Shown: positions 34,009 to 38,152, counted from the stretch's first letter. The stretch: DNA of 64,000 bases from Escherichia coli (GCF_003334355.1 NZ_QOWP01000021.1), one strand, 5' to 3'. Translations and numbers: made by a program. The notes: generated from the sequence alone by a model not told the origin.

Positions 34009-34036
34009 TTGCAAGCTATTGAAATAAGTATATATT
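34009..34036 (+). promoter_or_regulatory. Sigma70-like promoter candidate for the cargo operon
   Basis: TTGCAA (34009-34014), 16-nt spacer, TATATT (34031-34036); about 40 nt upstream of the ATG at 34076, which has an AAGGA RBS. Confidence 0.4.
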
Positions 34037-34075
34037 GCAAATGATGAGGAAAATAAAATATGCAAGGACCTACTC

Positions 34076-35017
34076 ATGGATGCACTGCATGTCGCGCTTG
34101 AAAATCTGATTAGAGATGATGGTCAAACACTAAATAGTTATTTTAGTGAAGTTAAAGTTAATTCATTGATTGAAAATACAAATGCAACTTGTCATTTTCA
34201 TTGCCTTAATCTTGATGGCAATGGACGTCCTCGGGTAGACGCGTTAATCCAATTCTTGAACGATAAAGTAGTTGATTATGCTATTCCAAGGAAAAAAATC
34301 AATGAGGCAGTGCAATATTTTAATGAAACACAATCAACAGCGAAAATAACAAAATTAGCAAATCAAGCAAAAAGATTATTTACTAGGCTTGCAAATAGTG
34401 GCGAAGGCGGTGAATTTATCCTTTTTTTATTTGCAGAGCAATTCCTTAGATTTCCACAAATTATTTGCAAAATGAGCCTGAAAACGAGTTCTCAAATGCA
34501 TTACCATGGTGCAGATGGAATACATATAGGCGTAGATAAAGATAATAAAAAATTATGTTTATACTGGGGCGAGTCTAAACTCTATTCCAGTCTGAGCAAA
34601 GGTATTTCTGAGTGTATGGATAGTATAGCTCCATTACTTCAAAGTTCTATGGGAATAGAAGGCGCTGAGACACGTGATATGCAGTTGCTGGAGTCGCACT
34701 TAAATGTTGATGATATAGAACTAGAACAAGCGTTGAAAAGATTCTTAGATCCTGATAGCCCGGATTTTAATAAATTGGAATACAGAGGAATATGCTTAGT
34801 TGGGTTTGATCTTAAAGATTATCCACAAGGGCCCAGTTCAATTGATATCAGTGAACTAGTTGCTTTGATTAATACTAAAGTCGGGAAATGGTCAACTAGT
34901 GTGCAAGGTGGTATAGTTAATAAAAAACTTGATCGCTTTGCTATGCATGTTTTTATTCTTCCTTTTCCTTCAGTAAAAGCATTTAGGGCTAGTTTAATTA
35001 AAGCATTGGAGAGTTGA
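34076..35017 (+). CDS. Nuclease-like protein with D...ExK-type motif; HamA-like (DUF1837-type) candidate, component A of a Hachiman-like defense pair
   Basis: 313-aa AT-rich ORF; HYHGADGIHIGVDKDNKKLCLYWGESKLY (about 34508-34578) fits a PD-(D/E)xK-like catalytic signature; stop sits 1 nt before the helicase start. Confidence 0.55.
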   Translation: MDALHVALENLIRDDGQTLNSYFSEVKVNSLIENTNATCHFHCLNLDGNGRPRVDALIQFLNDKVVDYAIPRKKINEAVQYFNETQSTAKITKLANQAKRLFTRLANSGEGGEFILFLFAEQFLRFPQIICKMSLKTSSQMHYHGADGIHIGVDKDNKKLCLYWGESKLYSSLSKGISECMDSIAPLLQSSMGIEGAETRDMQLLESHLNVDDIELEQALKRFLDPDSPDFNKLEYRGICLVGFDLKDYPQGPSSIDISELVALINTKVGKWSTSVQGGIVNKKLDRFAMHVFILPFPSVKAFRASLIKALES

Positions 35018-35018
35018 A

Positions 35019-37601
35019 ATGTCGTTGCGAGATTTATCTGGGTGGTTGATTAAGAATCAAGGATTCTTAAGAAAATATCAGGCATTAGTCGCTAACTCGA
35101 TAAAAGATCAATTTCCAGAGTTAAAATCAGATGTAATCCCACAGATTAGTTCTGAGGATGTCGGCTATCTTTTAACATGTGCTAGTTCTTTGGCTTTCTC
35201 AAGTGATGAGAAATGCCAAGATGCAGCCTTAAGGATTGCACAGTATTGCTTATTGAATGAAAAAAGTGAAGCAAGAAAAGATAGTGCTGCATTAATTCTT
35301 GATTCATTATCTAATAATCCAGCAATACAACTTGCTGAAAATAGGGGGTATCTTAACCCTGATTTCGAAGAAAGATTACCCTTAAAGGCTCAGTTAGAAC
35401 TAACTAAAAGAAAAATTCTATATACAATTGAAATAGATGCTGATAAGCATATTTATGCTAATAGGTTTCAATCAGAGTTTTGGGATGCGGTACAAGAAAA
35501 CTCATGGGTTAGTGTCTCTGCTCCCACCTCTGTAGGAAAATCATTTATCCTGGAATCTTGGGTGGAGCAGTTTGTAAAAAGAAATAAGAATTGCTTAGTT
35601 ATTTATATCGTACCAACAAGGGCATTGATTTCAGAAGTATATTCTGAGTTGCAAAAACGTTTGGATCCTAATTTAACAAATATAGTTAATATTCAGACAC
35701 TACCATTGAGTAATGTATACCAGAGCGAAAAATCTAATGTCTTCATATTTACACAGGAAAGATTAAATTTATTCTACAATCATTTCTCACAAATTCCAAA
35801 GATAGACGTCTTAGTTGTTGATGAAGCACACAAGATCGGTGATGGTGGAAGAGGTGTTATTCTTCAACATGTAATTGAACTGACTTGTCTAAATAACCCT
35901 GATTCAAAAGTTATCTTTGCAAGTCCTTTCACCTTAAATCCTGAAATATTGCTCAGTGATGCTCCAATATTAAAAAACAAAAGAACTATAAAAAGTGACT
36001 ATGTTACAGTTAATCAAAATTTAATATGGGTAGAACAAAAACCACGCAAGACCAAAGATTGGTTGATGTATTATTTTGCAAACGGTGAAAAACGCGAGTT
36101 AGGAAACTTTTCTTTAGAAAATGCACCATCTCCTGAAAGTAAAAGATTGCCTTTTGTAGCTCTTTGTTTAGGTAAGGGGGCTTCTGGTAACGTAGTTTAC
36201 GTAAATGGAGCCGCTGAAGCAGAATCTACTTCCAAGCTAATATCTGCAAGTATAGAAAATGAGACTGAGGATGAAGAAATTTTAGCTCTCGTTGAGCTTA
36301 GTGAGACAATTATACATAAAAATTTCGCATTAAATCGCACTCTAAAAAAGAGAGTCGCTTTTCATTATGGCAACATGCCTTTAATAATAAAGGGCGAGAT
36401 TGAACGATTGTTTAGTAAAGGTAAGATTGATTTTTTAATTTGTACCTCAACTTTAGTTGAGGGCGTAAACATGGCTTGTAAAAATATTTTTATAAGAGGC
36501 CCTAAAAAGGGTAATTCAACCCCGATGCGAGAAGAGGATTTTTGGAATCTTGCTGGCAGAGCTGGTCGTTGGGGAAAAGAATTCCAAGGTAATGTCATCT
36601 GCATCGATAGCGACAATGAAAAAATTTGGAATGGAGAGCCTCCAAAAACCAAAAAAAATATATTTATAACTCGCGCCACGGATGCTATTTCCCATGACAT
36701 GGATAAGTTGGTTTCCTATATTTTTTCAGAGCATCATTTTGGTATGTCTGAGCGGAATCCTAATCTCCAGAGTCTATTTAGTTATTTATGTTCATCATTT
36801 TATTTTTATAATGGCTTGGATAATAATCCTTACATGGAAAAGTACAATATAAAAAATATCGATGTTTTAAATGAAGCAATATTTGATGTTTTTGATTCTT
36901 TAACTTTTCCACACGAATTGGTTGTGCGGCATCCTGGTATAAGCCCGCTTTTAATGCAAAACCTTTGGGATAGATTTTCGCGGGATACAAACAAACCTGT
37001 AGAGAGATTACTGCTTTCTGAACCTGGTAGTAATGATGCGTTAGATTCATATGTATCCGCATTCTCTAGAATTAGTGATACTCTGAGTAAGAAGCTAGGT
37101 TATAATTCAAAAGGAGCTTACGTACAGGCCTTGCTAGTTTCCAAGTGGATGAAAGGTTATCCCCTAGCAAGATTGATCTCGGATAGAATAAGATATAACA
37201 AAAAGAAAAATATTGTTTTCAAAGAAGCGACTTTAATACGAGGGGTTATGAAGGATGTTGAAGAGATCGCTCGCTATCAAGCTCCAAGGCTTTTAGGATG
37301 TTATAATGATTTATTAAAAAGCTTTTATCTTTCGATAGATCGCACAGACTTAGCAAAAGATGTTGAAGATATCGGTGTTTATTTAGAACTAGGTGTAAGT
37401 TTAAAAACTCAGATTTCACTAATAGGGCTTGGCTTTTCAAGAACTGCTGCTGTAATGATTTCAGAGCTTATTCCTAATGATAGTTTAGATGAGGAAGAAT
37501 GCATTAATTGGATTAAGGACAATAAAGTTGACATGGAAGAACTGCCACAATTAGTTCAAAACGAAATACATAATATATTTCGTAACTTTTGGGTACAATA
37601 G
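35019..37601 (+). CDS. SF2 DEAH-box helicase; HamB-like candidate, component B of a Hachiman-like defense pair
   Basis: 860-aa ORF with motif I APTSVGKSF (about 35521-35547), motif II VVDEAHK (about 35815-35835), motif VI LAGRAGRWG (about 36551-36575), followed by a roughly 300-aa C-terminal extension. Confidence 0.6.
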   Translation: MSLRDLSGWLIKNQGFLRKYQALVANSIKDQFPELKSDVIPQISSEDVGYLLTCASSLAFSSDEKCQDAALRIAQYCLLNEKSEARKDSAALILDSLSNNPAIQLAENRGYLNPDFEERLPLKAQLELTKRKILYTIEIDADKHIYANRFQSEFWDAVQENSWVSVSAPTSVGKSFILESWVEQFVKRNKNCLVIYIVPTRALISEVYSELQKRLDPNLTNIVNIQTLPLSNVYQSEKSNVFIFTQERLNLFYNHFSQIPKIDVLVVDEAHKIGDGGRGVILQHVIELTCLNNPDSKVIFASPFTLNPEILLSDAPILKNKRTIKSDYVTVNQNLIWVEQKPRKTKDWLMYYFANGEKRELGNFSLENAPSPESKRLPFVALCLGKGASGNVVYVNGAAEAESTSKLISASIENETEDEEILALVELSETIIHKNFALNRTLKKRVAFHYGNMPLIIKGEIERLFSKGKIDFLICTSTLVEGVNMACKNIFIRGPKKGNSTPMREEDFWNLAGRAGRWGKEFQGNVICIDSDNEKIWNGEPPKTKKNIFITRATDAISHDMDKLVSYIFSEHHFGMSERNPNLQSLFSYLCSSFYFYNGLDNNPYMEKYNIKNIDVLNEAIFDVFDSLTFPHELVVRHPGISPLLMQNLWDRFSRDTNKPVERLLLSEPGSNDALDSYVSAFSRISDTLSKKLGYNSKGAYVQALLVSKWMKGYPLARLISDRIRYNKKKNIVFKEATLIRGVMKDVEEIARYQAPRLLGCYNDLLKSFYLSIDRTDLAKDVEDIGVYLELGVSLKTQISLIGLGFSRTAAVMISELIPNDSLDEEECINWIKDNKVDMEELPQLVQNEIHNIFRNFWVQ

Positions 37602-37693
37602 TCTTATTTAGACGATTTTTTAAACAATCAATAGAGAAGTTTTTGAATTTTATCATTCTTCCAGTAACAAAAACTTCTCTTTTATAACACCGC

Positions 37694-38152
37694 TCAGGCT
37701 ATTCCAGAATAGGCTTTGCTTACTTCACTATGCCTTGTGCCGCAATGCCTCAAAATAACAAGGCCATGTTGCAGTAACGCCTCACTACGTTCAGGTTCAA
37801 ACCATTTCCCGTTAAATTTTCCTCCGTGAAAAAGATTGTTTCTTACACGGCGGATTAACAAAAAAAGAAATTTTGCTAAATCTTTTTCTTGTGGTAAAGA
37901 ATCATCCCAAACTAAAGAGTCATCTTCTATGATTTGTTTTTTGGGTGGGTGTTCTTTAAAGTAGGTGATAGCAGCAATTAGCTCTGGATCAGTTGTGTTA
38001 TTTATGATTTCAGAAACTTGCTTTGCATACTCATCCCAGTTCGCTTTAGCATCTTTTATTTTATGATGAAGTCCACATGCCTTAAGGCAATATTCGTAAC
38101 GTGAAAACTCTCTAAAGAATTCATAACATAAATTATCTAGATTATTCTCCAT
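37694..38152 (-). CDS. Small HEPN-like protein candidate (Rx4H motif), possible abortive-infection/toxin-type RNase
   Basis: 152-aa ORF with GGAG RBS; motif RRVRNNLFHGG (about 37823-37855) fits the HEPN R-x4-6-H signature; divergent from the helicase gene and adjacent to int. Confidence 0.45.
   Translation of the reverse strand: MENNLDNLCYEFFREFSRYEYCLKACGLHHKIKDAKANWDEYAKQVSEIINNTTDPELIAAITYFKEHPPKKQIIEDDSLVWDDSLPQEKDLAKFLFLLIRRVRNNLFHGGKFNGKWFEPERSEALLQHGLVILRHCGTRHSEVSKAYSGIA

Follow-up and report, generated by a model that had tools for sequence, protein, structure and literature searches.

We analysed a window of 64,000 nucleotides (nt) of Escherichia coli DNA (GCF_003334355.1 NZ_QOWP01000021.1) in which an AT-rich block of 4.3 kb lies inside a ~12-kb P4-like satellite integrated beside ssrA, the transfer-messenger RNA (tmRNA) gene. 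The block carries a two-gene Hachiman system, hamA and hamB, followed by a convergent gene for a small HEPN-like protein that we call orf152. It fills the interval between a putative cos region, which follows the late genes sid, psu and delta, and the integrase gene int (Table 1). We are confident that this block is accessory cargo of the cos-to-int hotspot, that it was acquired by recombination at the hotspot borders, and that its low G+C content (GC) is persistent.

Table 1. Features of the satellite and its cargo, with positions counted from the first nucleotide of the window (aa, amino acids; ORF, open reading frame; HTH, helix-turn-helix)
Feature	Coordinates	Strand	Evidence and remarks
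P4-like satellite	~27,210-39,455		between ypjA and the tmRNA gene ssrA
Left direct repeat GTATACCTAAGCGTATACCAATA, 23 nt	27,210-27,232		22 of 23 nt identical to the right copy; spacing 12,223 nt
alpha-type P4 primase-helicase	27,456-29,840	-	phrog_2249 DNA primase, 1.2e-223; TIGR01613, 3.8e-30
C4/CI-type antisense immunity RNA	30,594-30,681	-	Rfam RF01695, 84.6 bits (gathering score 45)
isrK	30,750-30,827	-	Rfam RF01394, 76.7 bits; adjoins C4 RNA
AlpA/Vis-like HTH regulator	30,899-31,159	-	phrog_2790 (excisionase and transcriptional regulator), 1.1e-14
ORF-free control region (not cargo)	31,160-32,039		880 nt; GC 0.36; between the divergent early and late operons
Sid-like (Psu-fold, capsid size determination)	32,073-32,825	+	phrog_6165, 2.1e-94; PF07455 in relatives
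Psu, polarity suppression protein	32,822-33,376	+	phrog_6366, 8.6e-73; RefSeq phage polarity suppression protein
Delta/Ogr-type zinc-finger late activator	33,378-33,650	+	NF007241, 4.2e-16; RefSeq ogr/Delta-like zinc finger
Putative cos region, hotspot left border	33,826-33,880		box TGCATGAAAACC and G-rich variant core GGCAGGCGGGCGGGGCAGCGCAC at 33,856-33,878
Candidate sigma-70 promoter for hamAB	34,009-34,036	+	TTGCAA-16-TATATT, 40 nt upstream of the hamA start; consensus match only
hamA, Hachiman effector nuclease, 313 aa	34,076-35,017	+	PADLOC HamA1, 1.7e-135; Pfam PF08878, 4.4e-61
hamB, SF2 (Ski2-like) sensor helicase, 860 aa	35,019-37,601	+	PADLOC HamB1, E = 0, 1135 bits
orf152, small stand-alone HEPN-like protein, 152 aa	37,694-38,152	-	convergent to hamB, same strand as int
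P4-type tyrosine integrase (int), hotspot right border	38,182-39,381	-	NF007246, 1.7e-176
Right copy of the 23-nt direct repeat	39,433-39,455		
ssrA (tmRNA), chromosomal integration locus	39,566-39,928	-	ARAGORN; Rfam RF00023, 295.8 bits

A sequence-only reading of this stretch had proposed that the cargo is more AT-rich than the island core and the host genes around it, and the measured values bear this out. GC was 0.3465 for the span 34,009-38,152 and 0.3461 for the variable block 33,882-38,212, the borders of which were set by homology (0.346 for 33,882-38,181), compared with 0.494 for the backbone (27,456-33,880), 0.492 for sid-psu-delta, 0.484 for int, 0.50 for the host flank and 0.489 for the remaining window (chi-square test of the cargo against the satellite DNA on its flanks, p = 9e-54). 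In a sliding profile, each one of the 500-nt segments over 34,000-38,249 had a GC of 0.326-0.364 and the flanks had 0.47-0.52; the profile falls from 0.48-0.52 to 0.33-0.36 over ~33,900-38,250 and then returns to 0.47-0.51. The GC change-points were placed at 33,891, within 10 nt of the homology breakpoint described below, and at 38,344, in the 3' part of int and ~160 nt from its end. The cargo has a z of -3.0 relative to all other 4,144-nt segments of the window, and the only stretch of similar AT-richness at this scale is a second block at 16-22 kb.

The same break is seen in the coding sequences, where the reading had noticed A/T-rich codons. GC is 0.351 in hamA, 0.346 in hamB and 0.362 in orf152 (alpha, 0.51), and GC at third codon positions (GC3) is 0.24, 0.27 and 0.28, respectively, as against 0.44-0.49 in int and the backbone genes; the drop is largest at third positions, with positions 1 and 2 also lowered. 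Codon-usage distances from host genes were 0.71 for hamA, 0.66 for hamB and 0.62 for orf152, compared with 0.16-0.39 for typical host ORFs and 0.53-0.60 for three AT-rich ORFs at 16-21 kb, which makes hamA and hamB the most deviant of the ORFs compared. FYMINK residues account for 31% of the cargo proteins and 23% of the backbone proteins. The A/T run AAAAAATTATGTTTATACTGG quoted as an illustration occurs once, at 34,547-34,567 within hamA. It had also been stated that the integrase and the delta/psu/sid genes stand on either side of the cargo; they do flank it, but delta, psu and sid lie on the left only and the integrase on the right. The block was also considered as regulatory DNA of the satellite, which was ruled out because it is fully coding and variable.

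On the basis of its domains and motifs, hamAB is a type I-A Hachiman by the classification of PMC11914072, and RefSeq already labels the cassette as HamA and helicase in 20 complete E. coli genomes. HamA contains DUF1837 alone (PF08878 over residues 56-297), and its PADLOC HamA1 match is full length. Five homologues with 62-98% identity all retain its residues D147 and E166-S-K168; E166/K168 were equated with E138/K140 of ECOR31 and E150/K152 of DEC14B by motif, not by structural alignment. HamB matches the PADLOC HamB1 profile over residues 1-856, has the Pfam domains DEAD, Helicase_C and ResIII, and carries the motifs GKS173, DEAH268 and GRAGR513. A single nt separates the hamA stop codon from the start of hamB. 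The hamAB promoter call is weak, as there were 12 promoter-like sites in the region against 16.2 expected from shuffled sequence, and in a promoter and terminator scan of the cargo the counts were at or under the shuffle expectation. In three of the 20 cassette-bearing E. coli genomes (AH04, AH02 and CT01), hamB is interrupted by ISKpn26, an IS5-family element, after ~140 codons (seen in AH04 at L099 2620-6401), and Hachiman is presumably inactivated in these strains.

The type I-A systems of ECOR31 (PMC12278908; PDB 8VX9) and DEC14B (PMC11914072) are likewise two-gene operons, and share with hamAB a DUF1837-only HamA with an intact D...ExK motif and an SF2 Ski2-like HamB with Walker A and DEAH motifs. 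However, ECOR31 HamB has 1174 aa against 860 aa here, and the two sequences are distant (8vx9_B, 5.4e-12, with only ~100 residues matched). The nearest solved chain to HamB is 9wh1_B (853 aa; 3.9e-58), and HamA had no match among PDB sequences even at E <= 10. The Hachiman of the K-12 element CP4-57 (AbpAB = YfjL/YfjK, type I-B; PMC11914072, PMC10732053) also belongs to an element with a P4-type integrase at ssrA. Its HamA, unlike ours, combines an inactive DUF1837 with an added Cap4 nuclease domain at the N terminus; AbpB (8zue_B) matches our HamB at 1.4e-20 only, and CP4-57 is a larger cryptic element whereas the element described here is a compact satellite.

The borders of the variable block coincide with two fixed parts of the satellite. 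Alignment of seven P4-like loci over the DNA that follows their late genes revealed a G-rich core and a cos box, TGCAT(G/T)AAAACC, that is conserved among them; similarity among the loci was lost entirely no more than ~10 nt past the core. Three of the seven loci contain GGCGAGGCGGGGAAAGCAC, a 19-mer that we take to be the canonical P2/P4 cos end, and the core in the window is a variant of it (GGCAGGCGGGCGGGGCAGCGCAC). Homology to other elements stops at ~33,881, where the putative cos region ends at ~33,880, and the cargo runs from 33,882 to 38,181, adjoining the int stop codon at 38,182. On the right, homology with other ssrA integrases restarts at ~38,213, within int and ~30 nt from its 3' end. 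A search of the "phages" collection with the sid-psu-delta-cos DNA gave no match. Rousset et al. (2022, PMC9122126) place the P4 hotspot directly next to cos and count over 300 arrangements of its genes, and most P4 defence systems, Hachiman among them, lie between int and Psu-Delta-Sid (Moura de Sousa et al. 2026, bioRxiv 10.64898/2026.02.27.708500). The AT-rich block occupies this published defence hotspot. There is no essential difference from the elements of these two papers, which are of the same type, have the same slot and show the same combination of conserved backbone and hypervariable cargo; the late genes are ordered sid-psu-delta in the window and sid-delta-psu in P4.

A compositional break by itself is no proof of separate acquisition. 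We therefore made the comparison with related P4-like islands that had been suggested as a check. An integrase scan of IMG/VR returned 80 loci, and the slot between int and cos could be delimited in 65 of them. These 65 loci, all with the same integrase family, hold 46 unrelated cargo clusters, with Hachiman plus orf152 forming one. Closely similar left arms (93-99% identity) are joined to at least five other cargos. In L001, a satellite at tRNA-Leu in E. coli, identity to the window is 96% for alpha, 98.7% for sid, 98% for psu, 95.6% for delta and 96% for cos, but the integrase differs and the cargo is made up of ISCro1, a 528-aa protein and an MltR-type regulator, the latter two resembling "Aernus" (bioRxiv 10.64898/2026.02.27.708500). 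Four further loci (L040, L053, L079 and L085) have sid-psu-delta regions 93-96% identical to that of the window and different cargos. In the opposite arrangement, four loci labelled Raoultella or Enterobacter (L006-L009; host GC ~0.55) match the window with 95% identity in hamA and hamB, 91.5% in orf152, 91% in int and 89% in cos, but in sid, psu and delta the alignable sequence is limited to short stretches of 65-151 nt (73-83% identity), and practically no alignment was obtained for alpha. These comparisons support separate histories for cargo and backbone. The proposal of an exchangeable defence cassette acquired separately from the satellite backbone is thus upheld by the mosaicism, by the hypervariable slot and by the Hachiman identity of the genes.

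In the "plasmids" collection, a search with the cargo gave only short matches of 66-79% to alphaproteobacterial helicases, so the cassette is not plasmid-borne there. A scan of genome contigs with HamB peptide patterns, which were too strict, returned no relatives; these were then obtained by protein search and contig look-ups. One of them, a hamAB relative in Lelliottia sp. WB101 (63% HamB identity, GC 0.35; L018 8055-14314), is found together with another AT-rich gene, of 383 aa, immediately beyond the end of a P2/186-like prophage that carries the integrase. Hachiman has been reported in P4 but not in P2 elements (bioRxiv 10.64898/2026.02.27.708500), and the Lelliottia locus may be a case adjoining a P2 integrase.

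An abrupt change in composition, combined with aberrant codon usage, is classically read as a sign of recent import. In this case the donor would be a low-GC organism that is not one of the Enterobacterales, and the cassette would have had too little time to drift towards its host; the more distant HamB relatives (42-47% identity) are indeed found in many phyla. Such an import is nevertheless highly improbable. Among the 21 closest HamB relatives (59-82% identity, P0122-P0142; 13 metagenomic), all eight with organism names are Enterobacterales, from the genera Lelliottia, Yersinia, Enterobacter, Pantoea, Morganella and Providencia. The hamAB relatives at 95%, 82%, 72% and 63% protein identity all have a GC of 0.34-0.37, with backbones at 0.46-0.63, so the composition has been stable over long divergence in high-GC genomes. 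Their hosts include a non-P4 int/AlpA/DUF927 element (L016), another P4-like element at ssrA (L017) and the site beside the Lelliottia prophage described above. Moreover, the 46 cargo clusters of the slot have a median GC of 0.341 (range 0.301-0.438), with 45 of the 46 below 0.40, compared with medians of 0.541 (0.472-0.623) for the backbones and 0.470 for int at the same loci, and four cargos in complete E. coli genomes have a GC of 0.335-0.350. Such a uniformly low GC across unrelated cargos is unlikely to come from independent recent donors. We therefore rejected a recent low-GC donor on three grounds: the stability of GC, the Enterobacterales relatives and the likeness of the 45 cargos. 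Given this stability over divergence and uniformity across cargos, the low GC is a persistent trait of the gene pool circulating through the hotspot, and no mark of a recent low-GC donor. As it is long-standing in the cassette lineage and common to nearly all cargos of the slot, it is uninformative about the date or donor of the acquisition.

Persistence could also have a cause in selection. H-NS silences AT-rich foreign DNA in enterobacteria, and low GC might be kept because H-NS binding and Rho-dependent termination silence a potentially self-toxic nuclease system until the satellite is induced and Psu relieves the block. The cargo GC is uniform (0.30-0.40 in 45 of 46) whatever the gene content or backbone GC, it is stable over the divergence of hamAB, and the satellite encodes Psu, a Rho inhibitor (PMC11718236). 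The same pattern would, however, arise in mobile genes that are seldom expressed and weakly selected if mutation is biased towards AT, and published systems of the P4 hotspot give protection when expressed in their native context, even if the satellite is not induced (PMC9122126). A literature search on H-NS silencing of defence cargo gave nothing directly relevant, and we regard maintenance by selection as unlikely.

Some observations weigh against our account of the block as exchanged hotspot cargo with a persistently low GC. One of the 46 cargos has a GC of 0.44, and the satellite's own control region, which is free of ORFs, is as low as 0.36, so that cargo is not alone in having a low GC. 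The only non-identical carriers of the cassette, the four Raoultella or Enterobacter loci, also hold the closest integrase, and exchange of the cargo alone would be deduced for Hachiman from the other 45 cargos and not from Hachiman itself. Finally, the nearest solved or tested homologues (9wh1_B and ECOR31 HamB, with none in PDB for HamA) are distant from this pair.

The third gene of the cargo, orf152, follows int at a distance of 29 nt, and a GGAG precedes its start codon by 8 nt. It encodes RNNLFH at residues 104-109, an Rx4-6H motif in which R104, N105, L107, F108 and H109 are invariant in 35 sequences. The family comprises ~700 clusters at 90% identity, with proteins of ~150 aa and an invariant RNxLFHGGKFN. 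Searches against Pfam (E <= 10), NCBIfam and PADLOC gave no match, including to any curated HEPN family profile; the only match is to the unannotated phrog_19013, and the UniRef label "Apea-like HEPN" on homologues is the sole database support for HEPN. An AlphaFold2 model of high confidence (mean predicted local distance difference test score, pLDDT, of 90) has a fold that may be HEPN-like. The Rx4H motif on a long helix is shared with minimal HEPN toxins (HEPN-MNT: 5yep, 7ae2 and 8xdj; HEPN domains of Cas13), but, unlike HEPN-MNT, orf152 has no MNT or other conserved partner and no Pfam HEPN match, and has a beta-hairpin inserted at residues 72-83.

We asked if orf152 might work with this Hachiman, as its third component or its regulator, and so not be an independent module. 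It stands directly beside hamB in every cassette locus examined, both in E. coli and in the Raoultella/Enterobacter-type loci, and there are known cases of accessory modules modulating Hachiman, PezAT among them (PMC13064477). Such a role is very unlikely, given that hamAB relatives at 82%, 72% and 63% identity lack orf152, that the gene is convergent to hamB and co-directional with int, and that its homologues are found in at least seven other contexts from which Hachiman is absent and in which no partner gene is conserved. These contexts include the ffs/ybaA island end beside a resolvase and a DUF2188 gene, a P2-like prophage tail-gene hotspot, the vicinity of a lambdoid prophage integrase (L101), a site beside an AAA and S8-peptidase pair, and small-gene arrays near an Abi_C gene. 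We read orf152 as a mini-HEPN module that moves independently of Hachiman and was inserted between hamB and int, and it is possibly co-transcribed with int. The role we favour, with low confidence, is that of a toxin or defence RNase.

Taken together, these data fit a satellite backbone with a history of its own, in which the points immediately past cos and at the 3' end of int serve as the recombination sites through which cargo arrives. The present cargo consists of two modules. If HamAB works as other Hachiman systems do, HamB would survey DNA and hold the HamA nuclease in check until infection produces single-stranded 3' ends or damaged DNA; the HamB ATPase would then lead to activation of HamA, which would degrade phage and host DNA indiscriminately and so cause abortive infection (PMC12278908, PMC11914072). 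In those systems, resistance to phage depends on both catalytic activities (PMC12278908, PMC11914072). The convergent mini-HEPN gene, probably transcribed together with int, may add an RNase-type toxin or defence function.

The feature is an instance, already well documented, of a phenomenon known from published work. It confirms that P4-like satellites shuttle interchangeable anti-phage systems, of which the window offers a clean example, and its additions are modest: a uniform GC rule for hotspot cargo, a breakpoint placed exactly at cos and an uncharacterised mini-HEPN gene. Cargo GC is mentioned in the main text of neither P4 hotspot paper (PMC9122126, bioRxiv 10.64898/2026.02.27.708500). 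The rule (a cos-int block of ~0.34 in a backbone of 0.47-0.62, followed by 45 of 46 cargos) could be used to delimit hotspot cargo automatically. Also of use are a Hachiman I-A variant that is distant from the solved ones and comes with its native context, and a small HEPN-like family that recurs in variable and mobile-element contexts. There is a rather small chance that orf152 founds an uncharacterised and widespread, partner-less mini-HEPN family or that the uniform cargo GC of ~0.34 is a selected feature. If so, orf152 may act as a single-gene abortive-infection or addiction module, and the cargo GC could couple cargo expression to H-NS/Rho silencing that is relieved by the Psu of the satellite.

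The element as a whole is a P4-like satellite because it has int, alpha, AlpA, Psu, a Sid-like protein, Delta, the C4/CI RNA, isrK and a putative cos box and lies at ssrA, and the tmRNA gene is a listed E. coli integration hotspot of P4-like satellites (hotspot #9; PMC10121019). The flanks of the window match all 5,426 complete E. coli genomes, and strain 789 is 99.8% identical over 31,900-39,950; the start coordinate of the Sid-like gene was taken from the RefSeq annotation of that strain. ARAGORN gives ANDENYALAA as the tag peptide of ssrA, which is 185 nt from int. The left 23-nt repeat is probably an att or Int-binding site at the distal end of the satellite, and may take part in the crossover. 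The consensus GTATACCTAA(A/G)CGTATACCAATA is found at both element ends, with an inverted copy beside int at ~39,400-39,427. A copy of the ssrA 3' end was sought at the distal junction with an 11-nt seed and was not found there; the search turned up the 23-nt repeat alone.

Among the backbone genes, the TIGR01613 match of alpha represents the C-terminal domain of P4-family primases, and its RefSeq relatives are annotated as primase-helicase zinc-binding proteins. The C4 RNA and isrK lie inside an ORF annotated as "Icd-like" in RefSeq relatives and form a P4-type RNA immunity region; this Icd-like ORF and a DUF5375 ORF also belong to the backbone. The AlpA/Vis equivalents in relatives carry PF05930 (Phage_AlpA), and the late genes of relatives carry PF07455 twice and PF04606. 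The control region between the early and late operons is 73-78% conserved with other P4-like elements and had no match in an Rfam scan; its length is unusual for the divergent promoter region of a 12-kb element.

We also found defence-type genes past the alpha primase in P4-like relatives, namely a TIR-domain gene (L017 412-1155) and an AbiJ-NTD4 gene (L001 2832-3656). These extra genes fit a minor hotspot between the primase and att, the counterpart of which in the window (26,990-27,455) is empty. Finally, the second AT-rich block of the window, at 16,000-22,000 (GC 0.33-0.41, ORF GC3 ~0.31), is not part of the satellite. It is situated upstream of ypjA, around a tRNA (anticodon CAT; 19,293-19,368), and probably represents a further segment that was gained horizontally or is decaying.

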